A DNA stretch of 64,000 nt from NCBI GenBank assembly GCA_946624575.1, contig CAMOSH010000001.1:7778-71777 (forward strand), written 5' to 3'. Under the pieces are notes generated by a model. That model searched no databases and was not told the DNA's origin. It saw nothing but the letters and a program-made list of their open reading frames with translations. Both the position numbers and the translations under genes were made by a program. Below, piece by piece: positions 37,692 to 60,050 of this stretch (within the stretch, counting starts at the first letter, position 1; each line of letters begins with the position of its first letter). This stretch comes from an uncultured Verrucomicrobiota bacterium. Its GTDB lineage: Bacteria > Verrucomicrobiota > Kiritimatiellia > RFP12 > UBA3636.

Positions 37692-38257
37692 TGCAGGCCT
37701 CAGTTCCGTTGCCGGCTTCGCATGTTCAACTTGAGGGCGCGGCCCTTCAGGCCGCGCCCGGCGCGTCCGATTTGCGCGCCAGCGCTGCGCTTCTTCTGCG
37801 GGAGTGCCGCGACCGCGGAATCTCGTTCGGCACGGCGGAGTCCTGCACCGGCGGCCTTGCGGCGCAAGCCGTCACGGCCTTGCCTGGCGCTTCCGAAGCG
37901 TTCTGCGGGGCCGTGGTTTCCTACTCCAACGACGTGAAGCGCAGATTGCTCGGCGTCCCGGAGGAGACGCTTTCGTCCCATGGCGCCGTCAGCGCCGAAA
38001 CCGCGATCGCCATGGCCGATGGTTGCCGCAGGGCGCTGCGGTGCGACGCCGCGCTCTCCATCACCGGCATAGCCGGCCCCGGCGGAGCGGTGCCGGGTAA
38101 GCCGGTGGGCACGGTCTTCGCGGCGACGAGCGTTCGCGGCAAAGTCACCGCCGCCTTCGAAATGCGCTGGCCGGAGTCGCTCGGACGCGACGGAATCCGT
38201 GTGGCGTCCGCCGCCACGGCGCTTGACGCGCTTGCGCGCGCTGTGGCAGCGCCGTGA
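37691..38257 (+). CDS. CinA C-terminal domain / NMN amidohydrolase PncC family
   Basis: GTAESCTGGLAA, VSYSNDVKRRLLGV and GIAGPGG motifs. ATG overlaps the upstream TAA (TAATG). Confidence 0.65.
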   Translation: MQASVPLPASHVQLEGAALQAAPGASDLRASAALLLRECRDRGISFGTAESCTGGLAAQAVTALPGASEAFCGAVVSYSNDVKRRLLGVPEETLSSHGAVSAETAIAMADGCRRALRCDAALSITGIAGPGGAVPGKPVGTVFAATSVRGKVTAAFEMRWPESLGRDGIRVASAATALDALARAVAAP

Positions 38258-40452
38258 CTACGCTCGACCTTTCGCAGGGCTGGAGCCTTGCCCGGGCGGA
38301 GAGGCCGCGCGAACGCTCGCGCCACTGTTCCGCGCCGTGCAGCGTCCTTTCCGTTCTGCGCGAACACGGCGAAATCCCGGATCCGCTTGTCGGATCCTCG
38401 ATCCCCGACGGCGTCCGCGACGCGCTCGCGGAAGACTGGGTTTTCGTGCGGCAATTCGACTCTCCGCCGGATTTTTCCGACGCGGCCGACGTGCGGCTTG
38501 AAATCGACTCGCTGGACACGCGGGCGGAAGTGACGCTTGGAAACGCGACGCTCGCGCGCTCGCGCGATCCCTGGCGTCCGCTTTCGCTACCGGTGCGCGA
38601 CGTGCTGAAGCCCGGTCGCAACGTCCTGCGCATTCGCTTTCCGCGGGAAACGCGCGAGACTGCGCCGGACAAGCCGGCGCTAGCGTTCGGGTCCTCGTGG
38701 AGTCCGGCTCTGCCCGACAGGGGCATCGCCGGCGGGGTTCGCCTTCGCGCCTGGAGCGGTGCCCGCCTGGCCTCGGTCGGCTGCGGGCAAAGACACGCGG
38801 CGGCCGGTCCGGCGGAACTGCTTGTCGGCGGATGGGTCGAGAGCCAGCTCGGTCCGGGCGCCCCTGACGCCGCTTCTCTCGTGGTGCGCGTGAAAGTGCG
38901 CGACTCCGCAGGCGCCCCGATTTTCGACGGACGTGCCACGATGTCGCCCGGCGGTGGCGGCGCGTACCAGGCCGTCGTCCGCATTGCCGAGCCGCGGCTC
39001 TGGTGGCCGGCCGGTCTCGGAGAACAGCCGCTCTACGAAGTCGAAGTCTCGCTTTTCCGCTTTGTTCGGCGCGGGACCCCGGCGCTGCTGCTCGATTCCA
39101 GAAGCCTGCGAATCGGACTGCGTACGCTGCGAACCGAAGAGCGGCCGGACGGCACGGTCGCGATGCTGTGCAACGGGCGGAATGCGTTTCTGCGCGGGGC
39201 GGTGTGGGCGGCGCCGCCTCAATGCGTTGGCGCCCCCGCGGCCGCCGCCGCGATGGAAGTGGCGCTCACGTCGCTGCGCGATGCCAACGCGAACGCGGTG
39301 ACGCTCGCGCCGGGCGCGCCTCCCCCTCCCGAAGAATTCTGGGATTTGTGCGACGCGCTCGGCCTCGTGGTTCTTGGCGCGGCCGATCCCGCCGCGCGCG
39401 CCGCGGAGGCGGATTCCATTTCCGCGCCGGCCTTTCTCGCTCATCCGTGCATTCCCGACAATCCGGCCGCCGAACCCACGGAGGAGACCGGTCTGCGCTT
39501 CGGGCGTTCTGCGGTCGCCTGGCCCGACGCGGAAACGCTCCGCGCCGCGCTGCCCGACGGAGGGCGCAATCCCAATTGCCCTGCGCTTGACGCGCGTTGC
39601 GCGTTGAGGGGTGGGGGATCCGCCCTTGTGGCGGCCATTGCCGCGGAGTGGCCGGTTCCGGCGCGGGCGGACCTCTGGTTCAGGTTGTCGCAGCTCGCCG
39701 CCGCCGCGCGGTTTCGCGCGTTCGCCGCGTCTGTCCGTTCGGATCCCCGCGCGACTGGCCTTTTCATCGAGCCGCTGCAGTCGCTTTGGGCCGCCGCCGA
39801 CGCGTCGGCGATCGATTCCGACGGTCGTCCCAAGGCCCTGCTCCACGAGGCGGCGCGTTCGTTTGCGCCGGAATCCCTTTTCGCGCGCATCGACTCCGAG
39901 GGCCGACCGGAGGCGCTTTTCGTGAATTCCACAGCGCTGACGCGACGCGCTCTGTCGCTTCACTGGCGTCTCGCGACGCTGGACGGTCGCTCGATTGCGC
40001 AGGGCCGGCTTCCCATTCTGGTTCCCGCGTTCGAGACGCGCCGCATCGCGCTGCCGCCTGCCGCGGCGCCGGGGCGCGGGGACGACCCAGCGTCCGTCGC
40101 GCTCTGGCTCGCCGTCCGCGACTCCGAGGGATTCACGATCGCGCGGGACTTTCTCCTGTTCGCGCCGCCGCGCGCCCTTGCTCTGCAGGATCCCGCGCTT
40201 TCGCTTTCCGTCACGCAGCTCCCCGACCAGGACGGCGAACAGGTTTTCCGCGTCGCGGTTTCGGCAGGCGCCGCCGCGTTCGGTGTGCGGCTTGAAAGCG
40301 ACGCCGTGCCGGCGCTTTTCGGAGACAACGACTTCGCGCTCGACCCGGACGAGACGCTGGAAGTCCCGGCCACGCCGCTGACGCGCACTGACGCGGTGCG
40401 GTTCAGGGCCGCGCTACGTGTTTCGTCGCTTTACGATATCGCAGCCCGCTGA
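38254..40452 (+). CDS. glycoside hydrolase family 2-like (beta-mannosidase-like) protein
   Basis: N-terminal sugar-binding-domain pattern (GWSLARAER...VLSVLREHGEIPDP, compare beta-mannosidase VHTDLLAAGLIPDPF) and LEIDSLDTRAEVTLGNATL (compare FEGVDTYADVYLNG). The catalytic residues were not confirmed. Confidence 0.45.
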   Translation: MTTLDLSQGWSLARAERPRERSRHCSAPCSVLSVLREHGEIPDPLVGSSIPDGVRDALAEDWVFVRQFDSPPDFSDAADVRLEIDSLDTRAEVTLGNATLARSRDPWRPLSLPVRDVLKPGRNVLRIRFPRETRETAPDKPALAFGSSWSPALPDRGIAGGVRLRAWSGARLASVGCGQRHAAAGPAELLVGGWVESQLGPGAPDAASLVVRVKVRDSAGAPIFDGRATMSPGGGGAYQAVVRIAEPRLWWPAGLGEQPLYEVEVSLFRFVRRGTPALLLDSRSLRIGLRTLRTEERPDGTVAMLCNGRNAFLRGAVWAAPPQCVGAPAAAAAMEVALTSLRDANANAVTLAPGAPPPPEEFWDLCDALGLVVLGAADPAARAAEADSISAPAFLAHPCIPDNPAAEPTEETGLRFGRSAVAWPDAETLRAALPDGGRNPNCPALDARCALRGGGSALVAAIAAEWPVPARADLWFRLSQLAAAARFRAFAASVRSDPRATGLFIEPLQSLWAAADASAIDSDGRPKALLHEAARSFAPESLFARIDSEGRPEALFVNSTALTRRALSLHWRLATLDGRSIAQGRLPILVPAFETRRIALPPAAAPGRGDDPASVALWLAVRDSEGFTIARDFLLFAPPRALALQDPALSLSVTQLPDQDGEQVFRVAVSAGAAAFGVRLESDAVPALFGDNDFALDPDETLEVPATPLTRTDAVRFRAALRVSSLYDIAAR

Positions 40453-40484: not shown

Positions 40485-41156
40485 TCATGCGAAGGTGTAG
40501 ACGCCTTCCACCGAAACCTTGGCGAAGTGCGCCGCGATCGCCGCATCGTATGCCGCTGTGTGCGCGAACGCCTTCTGCATGAGGCGGAAGCGGGTCGCGA
40601 GCGAAAGCTTGCCGCCCGAGGCGCGCAGTTCGGAAAGCAGCGCGGGATAGTCGGCCGTGTCGGTCACGGAGGCCACGCGGATGAAATTCTTGGCGGAGGC
40701 GCGGATCATGCACGGTCCGCCGATGTCGATGTTGGAACGGCAGTCCTCAGGCGACACCCCGGGCTGCGAGGCCACTTTTTGGAAGGGGTAGAGATTGCCG
40801 ACGACCATGTCGATTTCCACGGCGCCCGTGCGCTTGAGATCGGCCTGGTGCGCCTCGTTGTAGTGCTCTCCGAGAAGTCCAAGGTAGATCTTGAAGTCGA
40901 GCGTCTTGACGAGCCCGCCCTGCATTTCCGGCTGCCCCGTGTAGTCGGATACCTGCACGAGCTGGGACGCCGCAGCGTCGCCAAGCGCCGCCGCAAGTGC
41001 CTTGTAGGTGCCGCCCGTGCTGTAGAAGCGGATGCCCGGGCACGTTTCGAGCAGCCCTTTTGCGAACGCTTCGATGCCGGTTTTGTCGAAGAGGCTCACG
41101 AGAACGTTCCGCACGGAAACGAGATCGTCGATTTTGGTGACGTGATTGAAGGCCAT
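40485..41156 (-). CDS. standalone IMP cyclohydrolase domain (PurH N-terminal MGS-like domain), no AICAR transformylase domain
   Basis: 223 aa: MAFNHVTKIDDLVSVRNVLVSLFDKTGIEAFAKGL...STGGTYKAL...VSDYTGQPEMQGGLVKTLDFKIYLGLLG...MVVGNLYPF...IDIGGPCMIRASAKN...LATRFRLMQKAFAHTAAYDAAIA is collinear with PurH residues 1-200. The long track ORF 40485..43844 is otherwise antisense noise. Confidence 0.7.
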   Translation of the reverse strand: MAFNHVTKIDDLVSVRNVLVSLFDKTGIEAFAKGLLETCPGIRFYSTGGTYKALAAALGDAAASQLVQVSDYTGQPEMQGGLVKTLDFKIYLGLLGEHYNEAHQADLKRTGAVEIDMVVGNLYPFQKVASQPGVSPEDCRSNIDIGGPCMIRASAKNFIRVASVTDTADYPALLSELRASGGKLSLATRFRLMQKAFAHTAAYDAAIAAHFAKVSVEGVYTFA

Positions 41157-41224
41157 GGCAATGTGTCGTTGGTATGTTGAACGAAAGAATTTTGAAAGTT
41201 TTTTTAGTTGCAAAGCACGCAGAG

Positions 41225-41340
41225 TTCGCAGTGAAGTCTTTGAGTCCCTTTGAGTCCTTTGAGTCTCTTGAGTCCTTTGAGTTCTTTGAGTTCTTTGAGT
41301 CTCTTTGAGTCCTTTGAGTCCCTTTGAGTCCCTTGTGTCC
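41225..41340. repeat. tandem 9-10 bp repeat (about 12 copies of CTTTGAGTC(C)) upstream of the IMP-cyclohydrolase gene
   Basis: tctttgagtccctttgagtcctttgagtctcttgagtcctttgagttctttgagttctttgagtctctttgagtcctttgagtccctttgagtcccttgtgtcc. Intergenic between the symporter stop (41411) and the IMPCH start (41156). Confidence 0.7.
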
Positions 41341-41410
41341 CTTAGCGGCTGAAAAAAAATCAGCGGCCATGTGCTTGAACCATCATGGGAGGCCAGCGGA
41401 CTTTCGACTT

Positions 41411-43978
41411 TTACTTGTGCCATGTCATTCCGTTGTCGGAATCGTCGGCAACGCGCTTGTCCAGGTCCTTGAAGAGCTGGATGCCGTCGCGGATGCCGCC
41501 CCAGAGGAACCACACGGTCGAGACGCACCCGACGAGAATCGGGATGATGAGGCTCGTGATGAAGTAGTACTTTCCCCACCAGGCCTTGGGCCAGGGCGAA
41601 ACCGTGTTCCAGAAGAACACGAGCAAAAATGCGATCCCGAGACGGTAGCAAATCGAATAGACGAACACCGACCAGGCGATGATCTTGTCGCCGCGCGTGT
41701 ACTCGCTGTCGATTCCCACGATGCGCTGCAGAATCGATACCTTGACTTTGCCGCGCGCCGCGATGCGGGCCTTTTCGGCTTCGTCGGCGTATTCGCCGCG
41801 GTGCAGCATCTTGTCGAGGTTGAACGGCTTGCACCAGCCGGCCTTGAGCGCGATCCACGAGCCCAGGCAGTACGCGATCAGGGAAAGTACCATCGACAGT
41901 CCGTAGATTTCCGTGGAGTTCATGAAGAACTTCTCGCGGAAGAGCTGCAGAGCCTGTTCGAGAGAGCTCTCGCCGGAGTTGTACCCGAACGACCAGTCCA
42001 CCCACGGGTTGAGCGGCTTGGCGAGTTTGGCGAAGAAATGGAACACGCCCTCGGTCCAGCCGTGGCTGGCGAGCATCGGAATCACGTGCGCCGACCACGT
42101 GCGCTGCATGACGAGCCCGAAGAGCGAGAATCCGCTGCCGAATATGATCGAGCCCCACGCGCCCACGATGTTTCCGAAGCGGCTGTAGAGTCCGAACACC
42201 ATGATCGTGCCGCCGCCGCCAAGCCAGACGGCGCACATGATCTGCGTGAACATGGCGATGTAGTCGAGCTGGCTGAAGAACACCGCCACCACGAAGAAGA
42301 AGAGCGCCACAGCCACTGCCGACCAGCGCAGGTACGCGATGTGCTGCCTGCTCGTGAGCGGTTTCTTGCGGAAGGGCAGGATCACGTCCTGCACCCAGGT
42401 CGAGGACGCGTTGAAGATGCGCGAGTCGTCGGTCGAGACGAGCAGCATCAGCATGAGAAGCGCGAAGAGTCCGATGACGCCCGTTGGCAGAATCTGGCGC
42501 AGCGTGACCGGGAGCATCATCTGCCCGTAGAGCGTGCGGACCTTCTGCGCCTGCTTGGCGTTTTCGCCCTGCACCGCCGCCAGTTCCGGCGACGGCGTTG
42601 GCACTTCGACGCCGGGGTCCGTCCTGTGACGCTCGGTCGCCACGCGGATCGACTCGGCCTCGGCCTTGAGCGAGTCCGGGATGTTGGCGTTGATGGCGGC
42701 GCGCGCCGTGTCGATGTATGGAGTGTCGTTGTTCTTCAGTTGCGACAGCGGCATGTTGACTTCGAGGTACGCCGCCAGTTCCGGGCTCGGCTCCGGAAGC
42801 GCCGGGCCGCGCGGGTTCGTCGTGAGCGCCTGCATCGTCGCGAAGTATTGGTCGTGCTCGGCGCGGATCGCCTCCGGCACCGGATCCTTCACGACCTTGT
42901 GGACGGGCGGCGGGAGCGCTTCGAGGTCGGCGGCGATTTTTTCGCGCACCGCTTCGTCCGGCACGGCCTCGGACGCGACCTTGTTCAGCAGCGCGATGCG
43001 GGTGCGGTGAGAGGAAAACTTGCCGTGGGCGCCTGGGAAAATGAACGCCTCGTGGTTCATCACGGTGATGACGAGAAGCGTCACAAGTCCGATCATCGTG
43101 TAGGCGAAGCCGTTGCGCCACGTGCCGAGGACGCCGGCCATCTTCTGCTCGTGCGGGGTGCGGCCGGAGTTCGTCGTATCGTTGCCGAACCACGAGGCGC
43201 GCTGCAGGATTGCCGCCGCAAGCGTGACGCCGAGCGCGAACATGTTGAAGTCGCGCAGCTTCGCGACGTCGAACGGGTTGAGGAAGCTTTCGCCGGGAAC
43301 GCGGTCCATCATGACCGGCTCCATGGTCGTGCCCCAGTTGTAGTTGAAGAAGATGTAGCCGGCGATGATGACGAAAATCGGGTAGGAGAGCAGCGCCTGC
43401 ACTGTGTCGGTGATCAGCAGCGAGATGCGGCCGGCCGGCCAGATCGCGATCGTCGCGAGCGTGAGCGAGATGGCGACGAGGATCGCGAAGCACGGGAGGT
43501 TCACTCCGAAGACGTGGATGCGGTGCGGCAGTCCCAGGAAGTAGATGAAGAAGTTGGCGGCGATCGCCGGGCCGATCGCGTTGGTGATCATTTCGGAGAA
43601 GTTGCGCAGCGTCGCGCAGAAGATGCGGAACGTGCGGTTGTAGCGCATCTCGATGAACTGGCCGAACGAGAGCGCGCGCGTCGCGCGCCAGCGGTAGACG
43701 CAGTATCCGGAAAGCCCCAGGAACATTCCCAGCGGCATCGTGAGAATGCCCCAGAAGCCCATGGCCGAACCGGCGCGGTACGTCTGCTCGCAGTTGGCGA
43801 CGAGCGTGATCACGGACAGCGCCGCCGCCACGTCCCCGACGCACATCACGTAGCGCCCCGCAACGCGCCCGGCGGCTAGGAAGTCCACTACGTCGCGCGC
43901 GTACTTTTTCGCGTAGATCGCCAGGCCGAGAACGGCGGCGAGCGGGATGAGCATGATGAACCAGTCTATGATGTGCAT
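41411..43978 (-). CDS. sodium:solute symporter family (SSS) transporter with large hydrophilic insertion
   Basis: Multi-TM SSS-like N-terminal half (MHIIDWFIMLIPLAAVLGLAIYAKKY...), an insert of roughly 200 aa (hydrophilic, Pro/Ala/Glu-rich), then further TM helices. 855 aa. Confidence 0.65.
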   Translation of the reverse strand: MHIIDWFIMLIPLAAVLGLAIYAKKYARDVVDFLAAGRVAGRYVMCVGDVAAALSVITLVANCEQTYRAGSAMGFWGILTMPLGMFLGLSGYCVYRWRATRALSFGQFIEMRYNRTFRIFCATLRNFSEMITNAIGPAIAANFFIYFLGLPHRIHVFGVNLPCFAILVAISLTLATIAIWPAGRISLLITDTVQALLSYPIFVIIAGYIFFNYNWGTTMEPVMMDRVPGESFLNPFDVAKLRDFNMFALGVTLAAAILQRASWFGNDTTNSGRTPHEQKMAGVLGTWRNGFAYTMIGLVTLLVITVMNHEAFIFPGAHGKFSSHRTRIALLNKVASEAVPDEAVREKIAADLEALPPPVHKVVKDPVPEAIRAEHDQYFATMQALTTNPRGPALPEPSPELAAYLEVNMPLSQLKNNDTPYIDTARAAINANIPDSLKAEAESIRVATERHRTDPGVEVPTPSPELAAVQGENAKQAQKVRTLYGQMMLPVTLRQILPTGVIGLFALLMLMLLVSTDDSRIFNASSTWVQDVILPFRKKPLTSRQHIAYLRWSAVAVALFFFVVAVFFSQLDYIAMFTQIMCAVWLGGGGTIMVFGLYSRFGNIVGAWGSIIFGSGFSLFGLVMQRTWSAHVIPMLASHGWTEGVFHFFAKLAKPLNPWVDWSFGYNSGESSLEQALQLFREKFFMNSTEIYGLSMVLSLIAYCLGSWIALKAGWCKPFNLDKMLHRGEYADEAEKARIAARGKVKVSILQRIVGIDSEYTRGDKIIAWSVFVYSICYRLGIAFLLVFFWNTVSPWPKAWWGKYYFITSLIIPILVGCVSTVWFLWGGIRDGIQLFKDLDKRVADDSDNGMTWHK

Positions 43979-44133: not shown

Positions 44134-44679
44134 CTAGCGCGCCCAGGCGAGGACTTCGGCCGATAGCGGCGAAACCGCCTCGATCGAAATCTCCTCTTCG
44201 GTGAATTCGCCGTCGAAATCGGGATCGGGCAGCTGCACCACGCAGACCTGCCCGGCGCGGGCGCCCTCGACGGCGCGTGCAAGCGGCGCCCGCCGGGAGA
44301 CTATTCCAAGAGCCTCGTCGCCGTCCCAGTCGCCCAGAATCGAGATTGTGCGCGTGGTGCCGTCCGAGTAGCGTATCGACACGGACGACCCCGGTCCCGC
44401 GACGCCCTCCGGCGGCGTGTAGGCCGAGAAATCGAACACCGTCATCGACTGGAGCTCCTCGCGGAGCCGCGTCTGGCGCTCGATCAGCTGGCGTTCGCGG
44501 TTGCGGGCGCTTTCATATTCGAAGTTTTCCGACAGGTCGCCGAATTCCTTGGCTTCCTGGATGTCGCGCCTGTTGCGCGGCATCTCCTCGTTGACTATTT
44601 TGTCCAGCTGCGCCTTCCGCGCCCGGTATCCGCGCGCGGATGTCGCCCGTTCGGGCAGCGTGGTCAGCTGCGCGTCCAT
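44134..44679 (-). CDS. greA: transcript cleavage factor GreA/GreB family
   Basis: Coiled-coil tip FGDLSENFEYESAR (compare GreA HGDLKENAEYHAAR) and C-terminal FKBP-like domain. 181 aa. Confidence 0.65.
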   Translation of the reverse strand: MDAQLTTLPERATSARGYRARKAQLDKIVNEEMPRNRRDIQEAKEFGDLSENFEYESARNRERQLIERQTRLREELQSMTVFDFSAYTPPEGVAGPGSSVSIRYSDGTTRTISILGDWDGDEALGIVSRRAPLARAVEGARAGQVCVVQLPDPDFDGEFTEEEISIEAVSPLSAEVLAWAR

Positions 44680-47303
44680 TCCACGATCTCCTGGGGCAGG
44701 GGCTCAATGGAAACGACCGTGGCGGCAAGCGCCTCGTCGCCGTCGGACGGGATTTCGACCTTGTCGCCGACGCGATGGTCCATGACGGCACGCGCGACCG
44801 GGGTCTTGAACGAGACTATGCCCAGCTCCGGCGCGCTGTCCCATTCGCCGAGAAGCGCGTACGACTTGCGGGCGCCGTCCGCGAATTCCAGCGTCACGTA
44901 GGATCCCAGGCCGGCGAGTTCGATCTCGGCGTCGCCCTCCTGGGCGAAATCGAATGCCGAAACGCGCTTGAGATCCGCTTCCAGCTGCTGCTGGCGCGCG
45001 ACGAGTTCGCGCTCCTTGGCGCGGGCGCTTTCGTACTCGAAGTTTTCGGAAAGGTCGCCGAAGCCCTTGGCAAATTCGATGTCCTTGCGGTTCTGCGGCA
45101 TCTCCACGTCCATCAGATGGCGGTATTGCGCCTGGCGCTCGCGGATCGAGCGGATCGACGAGACGTTTTCAGCGGTTTCGCCGCGCGCCGGGGCGGGACG
45201 TTCCGCCGGAACCGAATCCTGAAGATCGGGGAACTTTGCGAGGAGGTTGGCAATGAGGTGCCGCTTCTTCAGCGGTTCCCAGATGCCTTCCATTCCCTGA
45301 AGCCGGATAAACACGGACGCGCGGCTTTCGTGGTCCATCTTCTCCATGAGCGGGAAGAGCCACTTGCACCCTTCGTCGATTTCGGCGGCAATCTTCGACG
45401 CGGCCGAAGTGTCGCGCCGGCCGGACACGAACAGCTTGCGTATGTCGTTCTTCATGCGGAGATTCTCCTTCTCCGCCTGGAAGCCGAGGGCGATGCTGGC
45501 CGTGGTGACGATCGCGTACGGGGAGACAACCTCGAAGAGCGCCTCGGAAAGCTTCGCGGATGCGGCCGCGTGGCATATCCAGCGCAGCAGCGGCATCGAA
45601 AGGCCGGGGGTGCCGCGCCTTGCGGCCGGGTACCGCCCGTCGTCCGCCGCGCCGTCCGCCTCGACGTATTCGGCGTCGTCTTCGACCGGGGCCTCCGGAT
45701 TGTGGATGCGGCCCTGCGCGAACTGTTCGCGAATCTTGGCCGCGAACGCATCCTTCGCGGGTCCGGAGAGAAGCTTCGGCGCGATGTGCTCGACGAGATT
45801 GGCGGTCATGTACGGAACCGCCTCGACGAAGCGCGACGCGACTTCAGTATCCTTGTCCAGCGGAATCGCCGCCAGAAGCGCCTCCATCTGGCCGGCCGGC
45901 AGCGTCTTCGATGCGTCCAGCACGACGAGCGGCTTGCAGAGTGTGCCCGCGGGATCGACGGCGGAGCACGTGTCGTCCGTGAACGCGAACGATTCGAGCA
46001 GGTCGTAGCGTGTGGACTCGTTCACGAGCAGCGGCACCGGGAGAGACGAGAGCCCGGCCTTGAGCGCCAGCAGGAGCGCCTGGACTTTGGCGCGGTTGCC
46101 GAGTTTGCGGTCTGCCACGGACGCCTTGACCACGAACGCGAGCCTGTCGCGAATCGCGGCGGCGGTCTCCGCCGGAAGCTTGTCGGCCGGCGTCGCCTGA
46201 AGCCAGGCCGCGGTCTGGTCGAGGATGAACTTGGCGTCGCGGCTCGCCACGAAGTCGCGCAGCGTCTTGTCCGCCTGCGCGGCGGCGTGGGTTTCGGCGC
46301 TGCCTGACCGCACCAGTTCCACCGGTGCGGTCTTCTTAACGGCCGGGGGCAGCACTACCATCGGATCCTTCGAGAGCTGGGCGCGCGCCTTGGTCCAGAA
46401 CGCCTTCCACTCCGTTCCGGCCGGCAGAAGCTTGAGTTCGGTGAAGATCGTCTCGATGCGGCCGGGCGTCATGTCGCCCCACGACTTGAGCGCGAGCTTC
46501 ACGACTTCGCCGGGATTTTCCGCGATCTGCTTGTCGAACGCGGCCGGGTCCGCGTGCCTCACGGAAAGCAGGTGTTCGGGGCCGATGAACGAAAGCGAGT
46601 CCACCGCGAACGCGAAGCCGAGGTCGCGGACCTTGTCCGGCTCCGAGTCGAATTTGACGCCGACAGTGCGGTAGAAGTCGTCTTCCCGCTCCACGATTCC
46701 GTAGCCGCGGACCTTGTCGGCCACCACCGTTCCGGGTTTGAGCGCCAGCAGAAACGCCAGTCGGTCGAGCGCGGCCACCGGCGGCTTGCGCCCAAGCCCC
46801 GACGACTCTATCTTGGCCGCGACGAGACGGTCCTTCGTGGCCGATGCGAGCAGGGCGGCGCATTCGTTGCCGTACGCGATGCGATTGCCCGTCCAGCGCG
46901 CCTTGAGGCGCAGCAGTCGCGCCAGCGAGACGATGTCGTGCATGTCGACGAAGCGCTGCTCGGCCACGAGGAACGCCTGGTCGCGGTATTGCTGCTCCTG
47001 CTGGTTCTTCGAATCGTTGAGGAGAAGCGCCAGATCGTGCATCCAGCCGAGGATTTTTGCCGCGTCTGGCACGGGGCGTTCTGCCTCGGTGACCACGAGA
47101 GCGCAGAGATCTGTTGTCGAAAGTGCGGAATTTGCTGGAGTTTCGTCGGACATGGCGCGGGCTTTCCTGGACTGATTCCGCGGCGCGTCGGGATTTGCGC
47201 CGGGAAAAAAAGGGATTTCGGGTTGTTCACCCGATGCGACGCGCGGAGGATACCACAATCCCCGCCGGAATGAAACGGAAAATTTCCGGCTCGCGTTTTT
47301 CAA
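44664..47303 (-). CDS. large GreA-domain protein: roughly 640-aa N-terminal domain of unknown function fused to a complete GreA module
   Basis: C-terminal 170 aa: IRERQAQYRHLMDVEMPQNRKDIEFAKGFGDLSENFEYESARAKERE... plus an FKBP-like domain. The N-terminal region has no recognisable family. Probable start at MSDETPAN (47153). 16-bp overlap with the downstream greA paralog. Confidence 0.5.
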   Translation of the reverse strand: MKNASRKFSVSFRRGLWYPPRVASGEQPEIPFFPGANPDAPRNQSRKARAMSDETPANSALSTTDLCALVVTEAERPVPDAAKILGWMHDLALLLNDSKNQQEQQYRDQAFLVAEQRFVDMHDIVSLARLLRLKARWTGNRIAYGNECAALLASATKDRLVAAKIESSGLGRKPPVAALDRLAFLLALKPGTVVADKVRGYGIVEREDDFYRTVGVKFDSEPDKVRDLGFAFAVDSLSFIGPEHLLSVRHADPAAFDKQIAENPGEVVKLALKSWGDMTPGRIETIFTELKLLPAGTEWKAFWTKARAQLSKDPMVVLPPAVKKTAPVELVRSGSAETHAAAQADKTLRDFVASRDAKFILDQTAAWLQATPADKLPAETAAAIRDRLAFVVKASVADRKLGNRAKVQALLLALKAGLSSLPVPLLVNESTRYDLLESFAFTDDTCSAVDPAGTLCKPLVVLDASKTLPAGQMEALLAAIPLDKDTEVASRFVEAVPYMTANLVEHIAPKLLSGPAKDAFAAKIREQFAQGRIHNPEAPVEDDAEYVEADGAADDGRYPAARRGTPGLSMPLLRWICHAAASAKLSEALFEVVSPYAIVTTASIALGFQAEKENLRMKNDIRKLFVSGRRDTSAASKIAAEIDEGCKWLFPLMEKMDHESRASVFIRLQGMEGIWEPLKKRHLIANLLAKFPDLQDSVPAERPAPARGETAENVSSIRSIRERQAQYRHLMDVEMPQNRKDIEFAKGFGDLSENFEYESARAKERELVARQQQLEADLKRVSAFDFAQEGDAEIELAGLGSYVTLEFADGARKSYALLGEWDSAPELGIVSFKTPVARAVMDHRVGDKVEIPSDGDEALAATVVSIEPLPQEIVEWTRS

Positions 47304-58227: not shown

Positions 58228-58465
58228 CCGGACGGGGTGCGACCTGTTGTCGTTTCATCCTTTCGCCCTGTTGCCGAGCGGGCCGGACCTCGGGGGCAAG
58301 CCACCCCCGGTCGCGGTCGGTCGACGAAAGGACAACAGGACATCAGGACGAAAGGTCGTGCCCCGTTCGCCGAAGGTTCCGGGGGCGCGACCGATCAAGT
58401 CTCCCCGTTTGCCAAAGGCATCAGGGGCGCGACCTGTTGTCCTTTCGTCCTTTCGTCCTGTTGTC
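58228..58465. repeat. iteron-like array of 8-bp motifs (CTGTTGTC / CTTTCGTC) in direct and inverted blocks
   Basis: Block 1 (58233-58273) gcgacc TGTTGTC gTTTCaTC CTTTCGcC CTGTTGcC gagc. Inverted block (58316-58350) GACGAAAG GACAACAG GACATCAG GACGAAAG. Block 3 (58421-58462) gcgacc TGTTGTC CTTTCGTC CTTTCGTC CTGTTGTC gagc. GGGGCGCGACC repeated at 58377 and 58416. Block 3 overlaps the last about 20 codons of the McrC-like ORF. Confidence 0.45.
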
Positions 58466-60050
58466 GAGCACACTCCAAAATTGGATCAAGCCGGGTGGAT
58501 TTGGATGGATCCAGCGGACGCCCTTCGGCATAGGCCCTGAACAAGGCCATTCCATCGACTTGTACTGCGAGGATGTTTTCCGACAGGCAATTCGTGTATT
58601 CCTGCGAAATATTTTCGCGAATCCAGCTGAACAAGGGAACGGTGATCGTGGCGAAATTGCTGACGGGCTTCCCCTCGGCAACCTGTTCGTCACCCTTGTT
58701 GGGAAAGACGAAGGCGTTGCAGACCTTAAGATTGTTATCCTTGCAAAGGTCCGCGAATGCCAGCTGATAGAGAAACTGCTTGTCGATGTCGCCGACGCCC
58801 GGGCAGTTGCTGATCGTCTTTCCGCCGGTTCCAAACTCCGGAAGATAATACTTCGCGTCGAGGATTACGAGCCTAGTTTTGGCGGTGTCAACGGCAATAA
58901 AGTCAGGCCGAAGCCGTGAACCCGAAGCGCCGTCTTCCCCTTCACTTTGTTCGGCATCGGCTTGTTGGCCGTGTTTCGTCCATTTGGGCGGCTCGATGAA
59001 ATCTTTGAGCGCTTTGCCATTCCCCTCGTTACAGCGCAGGCCTAGATCGCCCGGCTTCTTGTCCATTTGGTCCCCGAACACGTCCTTGACGGCACGTTCC
59101 CACAGCTGCGCGACACCGTTCATTCCGAAGGAGAGGGACTGGTTGTCGGCGGCCTTGTTCTCGGCGGTCTCCCGGATCAGGTCCTTCATCAGCGAAAGGG
59201 TGTGGCGCGATTTCGTGACGAACTGGACCTTCAGTTCCTTGTCGATCTGGGCGATCTGGTAGTCGGGCTCGCCGAACCAGTCGAGTTCCTCCTCGCTCAG
59301 GAGCGGCACGTTCACCCGCAGGACGGACGAAAGTCCCAGTTCCTCCAGCTTGCGTCCCCACATGGTGACGAGGCACTGGTGGAGACGCGTGATGTAGTGG
59401 TCCTCGTCCGACCAGGCGAGCTCGGTGGCGTAGTCCATGTAGACGGGACGTGCCTTTCCGTCCTTCTTCAGGAACACGGGCTGGTATTGGTCGATGGTCG
59501 TCTCCCAGTCGATCTCGCCCTGGCCGTTGTGCTCCAGCTCCCGCCGTTGGACTGTGTAGACGCCGTTCTCGAGGTAGTCGCGCAGGAGGCGCACGGCGAG
59601 TTCAAGCAGACTTTCCTTTTGCTCTTCCGTTTCCTCGGTCTGGTCATCGATCTGGCTCCGGTTTCCGGGGTAGCGGTCGATGGCCTGGAGAACGACATCC
59701 CGGACGGACGGATCTTGCAGCTGGCTCCTGGAAACGAACTTCGGCATGAAGAAGAAGGTCAGGTTTCTTCCCGTTCCCTCCTCGCCGTTGTCGACATAAT
59801 CGTAGAGCCCGACGAACCGGAACGAATACCCGTCGTTCGTCTTTTTGACGACGGTCGTCTCGTCCTTGTCGGCAAGACCGTTGTCCATCGACTTCTTCAG
59901 GCGGGCAAGGAAATCATCGTCTAGCCAGTCAAGATTCGTTTCGCCGGACTCCGCCTCCGACGACTCCCCCATCGAAGCCGAAACGTCCTTCCGGAACGTC
60001 TCGACGCCATAGGATGTTTCTTCGCGGAGGTAGACGAGACGAATGCTCAT
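58395..60050 (-). CDS. McrC-like / LlaJI-type restriction endonuclease subunit (PD-(D/E)xK)
   Basis: PDFIAVD...RLVILDAKYY resembles the McrC PD...D-x-K nuclease motif ((I/V)xDxKYK). 4-bp overlap with the upstream McrB-like gene. Confidence 0.6.
   Translation of the reverse strand: MSIRLVYLREETSYGVETFRKDVSASMGESSEAESGETNLDWLDDDFLARLKKSMDNGLADKDETTVVKKTNDGYSFRFVGLYDYVDNGEEGTGRNLTFFFMPKFVSRSQLQDPSVRDVVLQAIDRYPGNRSQIDDQTEETEEQKESLLELAVRLLRDYLENGVYTVQRRELEHNGQGEIDWETTIDQYQPVFLKKDGKARPVYMDYATELAWSDEDHYITRLHQCLVTMWGRKLEELGLSSVLRVNVPLLSEEELDWFGEPDYQIAQIDKELKVQFVTKSRHTLSLMKDLIRETAENKAADNQSLSFGMNGVAQLWERAVKDVFGDQMDKKPGDLGLRCNEGNGKALKDFIEPPKWTKHGQQADAEQSEGEDGASGSRLRPDFIAVDTAKTRLVILDAKYYLPEFGTGGKTISNCPGVGDIDKQFLYQLAFADLCKDNNLKVCNAFVFPNKGDEQVAEGKPVSNFATITVPLFSWIRENISQEYTNCLSENILAVQVDGMALFRAYAEGRPLDPSKSTRLDPILECARQQDERTKGQQVAPLMPLANGET

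Follow-up and report, generated by a model that had tools for sequence, protein, structure and literature searches.

A probable unfused, PurH2-type IMP cyclohydrolase gene and its upstream tandem array in an uncultured Kiritimatiellia bacterium

Is a purH-like open reading frame (ORF) that stops after about 200 residues a broken gene or a complete one, and what is the short-unit tandem array that lies on its 5' side? Both questions are raised by a locus in a 64,000-nucleotide stretch of DNA, here called the window, from an uncultured Verrucomicrobiota bacterium (Kiritimatiellia; RFP12; UBA3636; assembly GCA_946624575.1, contig CAMOSH010000001.1, positions 7,778 to 71,777). We consider it probable that the ORF is the inosine monophosphate (IMP) cyclohydrolase (IMPCH) half of a split purH, preceded by a lineage-specific array that was born of slippage. 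Four parts of this reading are established by the data presented below: the domain identity of the protein, its intact catalytic residues, the conservation of the short form, and the existence in relatives of separate genes for the other half, the formyltransferase that acts on 5-aminoimidazole-4-carboxamide ribonucleotide (AICAR), here called AICARFT. As the IMPCH half of a naturally split purH, the 223-residue protein would cyclize formyl-AICAR (FAICAR) to IMP, an activity predicted from its sequence, and the formyl transfer step would fall to a PurH1-type AICAR formyltransferase of about 417 residues that is presumably encoded separately, elsewhere in the genome.

The IMPCH gene (41156..40485, minus strand; unfused PurH2 type, with the MGS-like domain only) begins with an ATG at 41156 and ends with a TGA at 40487-40485, giving 223 codons and the stop, and its product was assigned by Pfam, NCBIfam and Protein Data Bank (PDB) matches. 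In Pfam, the protein matched MGS (E 2e-09) and the first 59 of the 311 positions of AICARFT_IMPCHas (E 3e-15). Against PRK00881, the NCBIfam PurH equivalog of 510 positions, it covered positions 4-196 (E 1e-59), scoring under the full-length cut-off because half of the model is absent. Its PDB matches were the N-terminal domains of PurH/ATIC (E 1e-38 to 1e-35), with PurH chains spanning E 1e-38 to 1e-29. With E. coli PurH (taken from NC_000913.3) as tblastn query against the 64-kb window, residues 7-197 aligned to 41114..40515 with 45% identity (E 1e-36), and residues 200-529 found no match in any frame (best E 0.17). The original prediction, made from the letters of the window alone, had held that the ORF comprises only the first 200 or so residues of PurH, as a standalone IMPCHase domain, and that no AICAR transformylase domain follows it in any frame; both statements are upheld by these searches.

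Four residues, Lys66, Tyr104, Asp125 and Lys137 in human ATIC numbering, have been given as important for IMPCH (PMC3261824). Their counterparts in the window protein, located by alignment to 5uy8 (offset 9), are K84, Y123, D144 and K156, and all four are invariant in an alignment of 22 homologues with 65-91% identity and a mean column identity of 76% (alignment A1). The N-terminal MAFNHV and the length of the protein are conserved in its homologues, all of which start with MAFN or MSFN. Homology to the N-terminal domain of PurH/ATIC, together with the four catalytic residues, places the protein with the PurH2 type.

Is the short form peculiar to this genome? At least 535 loci encoding a relative came to light when a single genome of each GTDB species was scanned; this bacterium's own species was absent from the set, and the top match had 91% identity to the window protein. 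The best 80 of these loci, on which all counts out of 80 in this text are based, come overwhelmingly from gut, rumen or sediment metagenome-assembled genomes (MAGs) labelled Kiritimatiellae, Lentisphaerae or Verrucomicrobia. The ORF was 224-230 residues long in 78 of the 80; in the remaining two (L018 and L019) IMPCH is fused to an acyl-CoA-ligase-type enzyme, not to AICARFT. A family motif, GLVKTLDFK(I/V)Y(L/M)G, was present in 79 of the 80. Among the 120 best matches in a search of 5.8 billion proteins, nearly all were 216-231 residues long, with 65-100% identity and the same two Pfam matches, the exceptions being a 173-residue fragment and a 288-residue frameshifted call; the named organisms among these matches were Kiritimatiellia or Lentisphaerae. 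When 1.84 billion cluster representatives were searched exhaustively with HMMER, 569 clusters passed E ≤ 1e-30. Among the top 60, about 40 had lengths of 200-250 residues; the first fused PurH, of about 510-540 residues, appeared at E ~1e-43, and fused proteins were frequent lower in the list. Within the species, a second copy of the gene from another sample (contig L082, 99.5% nucleotide identity) encodes a protein that differs by one residue.

These comparisons bear on the suggestion, also made in the original prediction, that an insertion truncated purH. The ORF would then be the decaying remnant of a full-length gene, cut by a rearrangement or insertion of which the repeat is the mark; the gene order around the ORF is indeed unlike that of close relatives, and upstream homology ends about 30 nt before the ATG, beside the array. 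Yet the short form is conserved in at least 535 genomes, with 78 of the best 80 loci at 224-230 residues, and the homologues at those 80 loci are not fragments of longer genes. The ORF itself has the full length for its family, no frameshifts, intact catalytic residues, and a GC content at third codon positions (GC3) of 0.83, like that of the neighbouring genes and of coding sequence in the window generally. No AICARFT remnant lies downstream, where a convergent gene related to glycoside hydrolase family 2 (GH2) ends 32 nt past the IMPCH stop and so leaves no space for a transformylase domain, and AICARFT forms a 417-residue family of its own in the same groups. Besides, the supposed insertion would be at the wrong end, since the missing domain is C-terminal and the array lies on the 5' (N-terminal) side. 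Truncation of purH is thus not supported, and we regard the decaying-remnant explanation as effectively refuted, with hardly any probability left to it. The ORF is, to judge by its own sequence and those of its relatives, the normal, conserved, unfused form: it is a short form shared across a family, with no AICARFT on the same polypeptide.

Where the other half of purH resides can be seen in relatives. An AICARFT-only ORF directly follows the IMPCH gene in three of the 80 loci (L038, L069 and L074) and lies 3.4 kb downstream of it in L043; the two genes occur together within the fetched flanks in only 4 of the 80. These AICARFT-only ORFs carry a KHNNPCG motif and FKH at their end, and three of the four are 417 residues long, that of L069 being longer at its first in-frame start. 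When the L043 protein was used as query, nearly all of the 120 best matches were 416-418 residues long and had PF01808 only; they came from Kiritimatiellia, Verrucomicrobia, Lentisphaerae, Latescibacteria and Brocadiaceae. The 417-residue proteins cover PurH model positions from about 212 to 510. The top matches of both protein searches, with the IMPCH and the AICARFT query alike, were all split forms, and no fused PurH was among them. By this comparative evidence purH is split, across the group, into PurH2 (IMPCH) and PurH1 (AICARFT) genes that are usually unlinked.

The second question concerns the array, an imperfect, non-coding run of 11 units of 9-10 bp at 41238-41341 (104 nt), delimited by Tandem Repeats Finder (TRF) and by unit parsing. 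Its unit on the plus strand is CTTTGAGTC; read on the gene strand, the units are, in order, GGGACACAAG, two copies of GGACTCAAAG, GACTCAAAG, AGACTCAAAG, two copies of AACTCAAAG, GACTCAAGA, two copies of GACTCAAAG, and GGACTCAAAG. TRF reported a period of 9 at 41238-41340 with 11.1 copies, 86% matches and a score of 137, and a higher-order period of 19 bp (10+9) with a score of 156, which makes this the strongest tandem array in the window; overall, the mixed 9- and 10-bp units match at 86-88%. A two-unit pattern with up to three mismatches was found seven times, always at the array site, against 0.02 matches expected from shuffles. The unit, the 9-mer and the AAAGGAC/GTCCTTT core were not enriched elsewhere in the 64-kb window, and the array unit does not recur at many loci but is present as an array only once.

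The original prediction had described about 12 tandem copies of a 9-10-bp unit immediately upstream of the start, with a symporter gene on the far side, and had proposed the array as a candidate for slippage. The array and its unit size stand, with the count corrected to 11; it does lie on the 5' side of the gene, though it ends 81 nt before the ATG; and the symporter gene (41411-43978) is where it was said to be, co-directional with the IMPCH gene, so that the array sits within the 254-nt spacer of two genes on the same strand. As a slippage candidate it also holds up, being a genuine short-unit tandem repeat of the length-changing kind. Three pairs of adjacent units are identical (units 2-3, 6-7 and 9-10), although identical neighbours show no significant clustering (permutation P = 0.11); given these pairs and the 19-bp super-period, the array should gain or lose units readily.

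Cyanobacterial short tandemly repeated repetitive (STRR) sequences are intergenic direct repeats of short units. The window array is most likely a slippage-born tract of this kind or of the variable-number tandem repeat (VNTR) kind. It would have arisen by slipped-strand duplication in the spacer between symporter and IMPCH genes, whose GC content (43-54%) is lower than that of the flanking genes (about 65%). Strains are expected to differ in its length, which could change expression by degrees.

Two other explanations of the region were considered and dropped. An N-terminal extension of the IMPCH protein, in a frame that stays open across the array between an ATG at 41423 and the gene, is spoken against by the GC3 of that frame, 0.37 compared with 0.83-0.90 in the flanking genes, and by the MAFN or MSFN start of the homologues. 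A cluster of GANTC methylation sites, one per unit, was rejected as well, GANTC being neither avoided nor enriched in the window (265 observed, 326 expected). Rfam gave no match to the array at E ≤ 1, and a search for mobile-element scars found no meaningful inverted repeats or target duplications around it.

How widely is the array shared? In the closest relatives (L002, L003 and L083-L087; 88-91% amino acid identity) the IMPCH gene has different neighbours and upstream similarity is confined to the last 30 nt or so before the ATG; the window-type array is absent upstream of the IMPCH gene in all of them. The neighbours of the window IMPCH gene lie beside the gene in none of the 80 relatives, and those of the L084 gene are not in the window. 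Symporter homologues in relatives are not followed by an IMPCH gene, and L208 and L209 have neither an IMPCH neighbour nor the array. The adjacency of symporter and IMPCH genes at which the array would have arisen was accordingly seen in no relative examined, and the array is, as far as these genomes tell, lineage-specific. Within the species, L082, a 1454-bp contig from an independent sample, begins inside the array at window position 41288. The five gene-proximal units are identical in L082 and the window, which makes the array real biology rather than a one-off assembly artefact. The 90% protein cluster of the window IMPCH contains only the window's own protein (P0121) and P0001, the one encoded on L082; exact look-ups of the window IMPCH and symporter proteins returned no record, and a search with the symporter C-terminus returned no same-species fragment (best 83%).

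Several points weigh against a split-purH IMPCH with a slippage-born array upstream. On the side of the protein, GLVKTLDFKIYLG in the IMPCH family replaces the canonical PurH motif GRVKTLHPxxHGG, and in the window subclade SLFDK stands in place of the SVSDK of E. coli and human PurH. The deviating positions are near the active site, outside the four listed catalytic residues, and with the family motif departing from canonical PurH, full IMPCH activity can be expected only by inference. An acyl-CoA-ligase-type (AMP-binding) gene lies directly 3' of the IMPCH gene in 14 of the 80 relatives, and this adjacency, like the fusion in L018 and L019, hints at possible extra roles for the IMPCH protein. 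The partner AICARFT gene is likewise predicted for the window's own genome, of which the 64-kb window is the part covered. On the side of the array, a neutral VNTR is the default explanation, and the break of L082 within the array could stem from array lengths that differ within the population, which would speak for a more dynamic or functional array, or from plain assembly failure.

The motif differences and the ligase genes would suit another kind of protein, namely a PurH2-fold paralogue with a different, ForH-like substrate, or a partner of an acyl-CoA-ligase-like enzyme, and ForH (PDB 6NKO, 216 residues) sets the precedent of a standalone bacterial homologue (PMC7118188). We think this very unlikely. 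The four IMPCH catalytic residues are invariant, the protein matches PurH (E 1e-38) better than ForH (E 1e-26), and nothing in the window resembles the neighbourhood of a biosynthetic cluster. Moreover, AICARFT-only genes are adjacent to the IMPCH gene in some relatives, an AICARFT-only family exists in the same phyla, and the top matches of both protein searches were split forms, none of them fused PurH.

The ligase-adjacent loci comprise L018 and L019 (6001-8154), where the IMPCH-ligase fusion is a 717-residue protein, and L015, L016, L022, L024, L028, L046, L057, L059, L063, L072, L078 and L080. The ligase scored below every NCBIfam cut-off, and the window has no acyl-CoA-ligase-type gene. 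Another recurrent neighbour, present at 23 of the 80 loci (e.g., L006, L014, L040, L045 and L050), is the alpha gene of a class I fumarate hydratase, often with the beta gene after it. It lies some 0.7-1.7 kb downstream of IMPCH, and it too is not in the window.

Along the gene strand, the spacer around the array consists of some 40 nt of unique sequence, then a weak hairpin, the array and an 81-nt leader. The leader or promoter region (41157..41237, minus strand, about 40% GC), defined by sequence as the interval between array and ATG, is C/A-rich in its last 30 nt or so, which are the sole upstream part that can be aligned with L003, L084 and L085 (alignment A2). Neither consensus scans nor a relaxed -35/-10 search found a sigma-70-like promoter in the spacer, and no intrinsic terminator was found there. 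The hairpin (41343..41369, minus strand) was identified by folding and has a stem of 4+5 bp with an internal mismatch and a U7 loop. It lies about 40 nt past the symporter stop, and nothing else in the spacer's centroid fold is stable. Its own fold energy, -11.6 kcal/mol (z = -1.45), is not significant, 21 of 200 shuffles folding equally well; it was not called as a terminator, and on this modelling it may be a terminator that lacks a U tail or a chance structure. Of 200 shuffles, 197 folded better than the 281-nt spacer RNA as a whole (z = +1.6), and for the array as single-stranded DNA the centroid energy was 0 kcal/mol (z = +1.4); the array is predicted to be unstructured in both forms. It would lie either upstream of an unrecognised promoter or inside a transcript, be it read-through or a 5' leader, as an A-rich stretch of predicted lack of structure.

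One functional possibility is that the array is a contingency or "rheostat" repeat, in which slippage alters the number of units and with it the promoter geometry or the length of the 5' untranslated region (5'-UTR), and hence IMPCH expression. This has some appeal, as the gene has a tandem repeat of short units on its 5' side, the array's three identical neighbouring pairs and 19-bp period fit recent unit duplications, and the sole other contig of the species, L082, ends inside it. There is also a model in the repeat of the hmw1A 5'-UTR, which is transcribed and can set expression inversely to its length (PMC12721329). The units are heterogeneous, however (9 or 10 bp, 86-88%), while phase-variable tracts are usually near-perfect, and the identical neighbours are not significantly clustered (P = 0.11). 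The spacer RNA, less structured than its shuffles, contains no complementary region for an hmw-like hairpin, no promoter could be placed by consensus or relaxed scans, and the closest relatives have no such array at their orthologous gene. The target would, moreover, be a housekeeping purine enzyme and not a surface or restriction function of the sort generally found at contingency loci. On balance we judge a rheostat unlikely, though the least unlikely of the functional explanations.

The array might otherwise serve as a binding platform, either as DNA, with iterated sites for a transcription factor or nucleoid protein, or as an A-rich, GGA-containing RNA leader, for S1, cold-shock or CsrA-like proteins. 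Binding of S1, Csp or CsrA has been proposed for intergenic heptamer repeats (PMC4679880), and the window array presents an AAAGGAC core every 9-10 nt in a region predicted to be unstructured. G-poor arrays often stand directly before start codons in relatives (L083, L057, L014 and L072), and arrays of the same unit occur in unrelated metagenome contigs, where mixed 9- and 10-nt units (L167, L146, L143/L152) make a coding role unlikely for those that have them. Set against this, the unit is not dispersed: neither the AAAGGAC/GTCCTTT core nor the 9-mer is enriched in the window, and a regulon is hence not indicated. Between the array and the ATG there are 81 nt, so that it does not adjoin the start codon, it is not conserved in relatives, and the metagenome matches were selected by the query and are in many cases compatible with coding (DSK or GLK). 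We rate a binding platform as distinctly improbable.

Other IMPCH genes also have arrays upstream, each of a different kind. L083 (90% amino acid identity) has an unrelated 8-bp array, about eight copies of ACCATCCG, which takes up most of its 57-nt spacer and ends about 14 nt before the IMPCH ATG. CCAACTA is repeated 5.6 times abutting the IMPCH ATG in L057, CCCTGTT 9.4 times upstream of the gene in L026, and AACCATCC 3.4 times in L014; L056 has two inverted 8-bp arrays upstream. In a census of the 80 relatives' loci and the window (860 kb; period 5-14, at least 4 copies, score of at least 60) there were 12 arrays, or about one per 70 kb, each with its own unit. By a rough count, and once the concentration of arrays in intergenic sequence is taken into account, there is no special excess of them upstream of the IMPCH gene. 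The window array is most likely one instance of a tendency of Kiritimatiellia-type genomes toward arrays of 7-14-bp units.

A bolder version would have an active process, common to the lineage of Kiritimatiellia-type genomes, seed 7-14-bp arrays in intergenic leaders and, in frame, in the loops of conserved enzymes, the window array being a functional, length-tunable leader or promoter element. We give this about as little credence as the binding platform; if true, it would put a housekeeping step of purine biosynthesis under repeat-number control.

Arrays in relatives offer further observations. On the sense strand, G-poor 7-8-bp arrays (ACCATCCG, CCACCTTT and CCAACTA) lie from a few to about 15 nt from start codons, as in L083 (731-800 and 4419-4461) and just 5' of the IMPCH ATG in L057, which suggests that repeat-derived, unstructured leaders devoid of a Shine-Dalgarno sequence are common in the group. 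Arrays of 7-9-bp units also occur in frame within conserved enzyme genes (L040, 1463-1513 and 1881-1939; L045, 2561-2626; L019, 5473-5529; L032, 7999-8036), and Pfam matches span the insertions. Their hosts are fumarate hydratase alpha and beta, a FAD-dependent flavoprotein of the Succ_DH type, and a glycosyltransferase. At one fumarase loop, after CHFEQ, the insertions of L040, L045, L049 and L051 are variable and derive from repeats, and that of L050 is apparently non-repetitive. One fumarase gene has arrays of the 7-bp unit GGGGAAC/T at two sites about 270 bp apart (L040, 1195-1230 and 1463-1513); these do not obviously come from local slippage alone, and ectopic copying or a templated process is possible.

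A metagenome scan for two perfect units, GACTCAAAGGACTCAAAG, found more than 120 contigs, none of them from this species by blastn, and many with arrays of the same 9-mer. Such arrays of GACTCAAAG or of 9-mers with the AAAGGAC core are found in unrelated contigs that include L200 (1-939), with 100 copies, L186 (806-1075), with 22 copies followed by an inverted array of 5, and L131, L136, L154 and L159. Some are compatible with DSK or GLK coding and others mix 9- and 10-nt units; selected by the query and partly compatible with coding, they do not demonstrate a shared function. The density of arrays in these contigs was rejected as a control, being biased by the selection of contigs for arrays.

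Of the genes that flank the IMPCH gene, the one on the 5' side (41411..43978, minus strand) encodes an 855-residue member of the solute:sodium symporter family, recognised by Pfam SSF and by TIGR00813 at residues 484-615; its stop lies 254 nt before the IMPCH ATG and its GC3 is 0.90. The convergent gene on the 3' side (38254..40452, plus strand) is GH2/beta-mannosidase-like by its Pfam matches (Glyco_hydro_2_N2, Ig_mannosidase and Mannosidase_ig). Farther along the window, 44134-44679 (minus strand) encodes a 181-residue GreA-like protein (Pfam GreA_GreB_N and GreA_GreB), which slightly overlaps a gene for an 879-residue protein (44664-47303, minus strand) whose C-terminal part appears, from its translation, to be a second GreA-like module. 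At 58230-58470, apparently between genes, there is a complex repeat of 8-nt units resembling GTCCTTTC and GTCCTGTT. It contains two 46-nt direct copies 190 nt apart (89%), a second direct pair of 32 nt (81%), and inverted arms of 17-28 nt that are 86-100% complementary, and it resembles the paired inverted arrays of L056, L052 and L186.

What follows for annotation is that a half-length purH in a gut or rumen Kiritimatiellia MAG signals neither a pseudogene nor an assembly break. The half-length form is normal in the group and gives pathway reconstructions no ground for counting purine synthesis as incomplete. The names of the two halves are a trap in the source databases: in NCBI records true IMPCH-only proteins (P0038 and P0044) are "hypothetical protein", the 417-residue AICARFT-only proteins (P0122, P0125, P0130 and others) are often "IMP cyclohydrolase", and JGI puts the bifunctional name on both. 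For strain typing in the lineage, the array is at present a candidate VNTR marker; beyond that it matters only if its length proves to be variable and to affect expression.

Among known repeats, the closest working model for the window array is (ATCTTTC)n of Haemophilus influenzae hmw1A, likewise a tandem run of short units upstream of a gene, with a unit number that could set the level of expression. Transcribed and near-perfect, the hmw repeat has a G-rich segment as its pairing partner; together they make a 5'-UTR hairpin, processed by RNase III, through which repeat length sets expression, and the repeat varies measurably in populations (PMC12721329), whereas the units of the window array are imperfect and have no pairing partner. 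By description, the nearest analogues are the TAACTGA heptamers of Beggiatoaceae, Cyanobacteria and Bacteroidetes, which like the window array are non-coding intergenic arrays of 7-9-nt units (PMC4679880). Arrays of the TAACTGA or STRR type often lie just upstream of start codons, and a single unit turns up at many places of the genome; in the window and its relatives, by contrast, each array has its own unit, and the GACTCAAAG array occurs once in 64 kb.

For the protein, a bacterial standalone homologue in the PDB is ForH, a PurH2-fold protein of formycin biosynthesis (PDB 6NKO, 216 residues). It belongs to a secondary-metabolite cluster of Streptomyces (PMC7118188), whereas the window holds no such cluster, and its match to the window protein is weaker (E 1.7e-26). 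Split purH is known experimentally only from Archaeoglobus. AF1811 of A. fulgidus, for which conversion of FAICAR to IMP has been addressed by enzyme assay or complementation (PMC6797443), is like the window protein a standalone MGS-fold IMPCH with no AICARFT domain and with Lys66, Tyr104, Asp125 and Lys137 conserved. This likeness is one of architecture and residues, and the GLVKTLDFKIYLG motif marks the window family. AF1811 is archaeal and its suspected partner is the folate-independent PurP; the window protein is bacterial (Kiritimatiellia-like) and its likely partner is a 417-residue PurH1 of the folate type. Fused PurH is used "almost uniformly" outside the archaea (PMC6797443), so that a bacterial family with the two halves on two proteins, found in at least 535 species-level genomes, is a useful if modest addition. 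The N-terminal domain of bifunctional PurH/ATIC is homologous to the window protein (45% identity over residues 7-197 of E. coli PurH), but in the window's group the two halves are separate genes, usually not adjacent.

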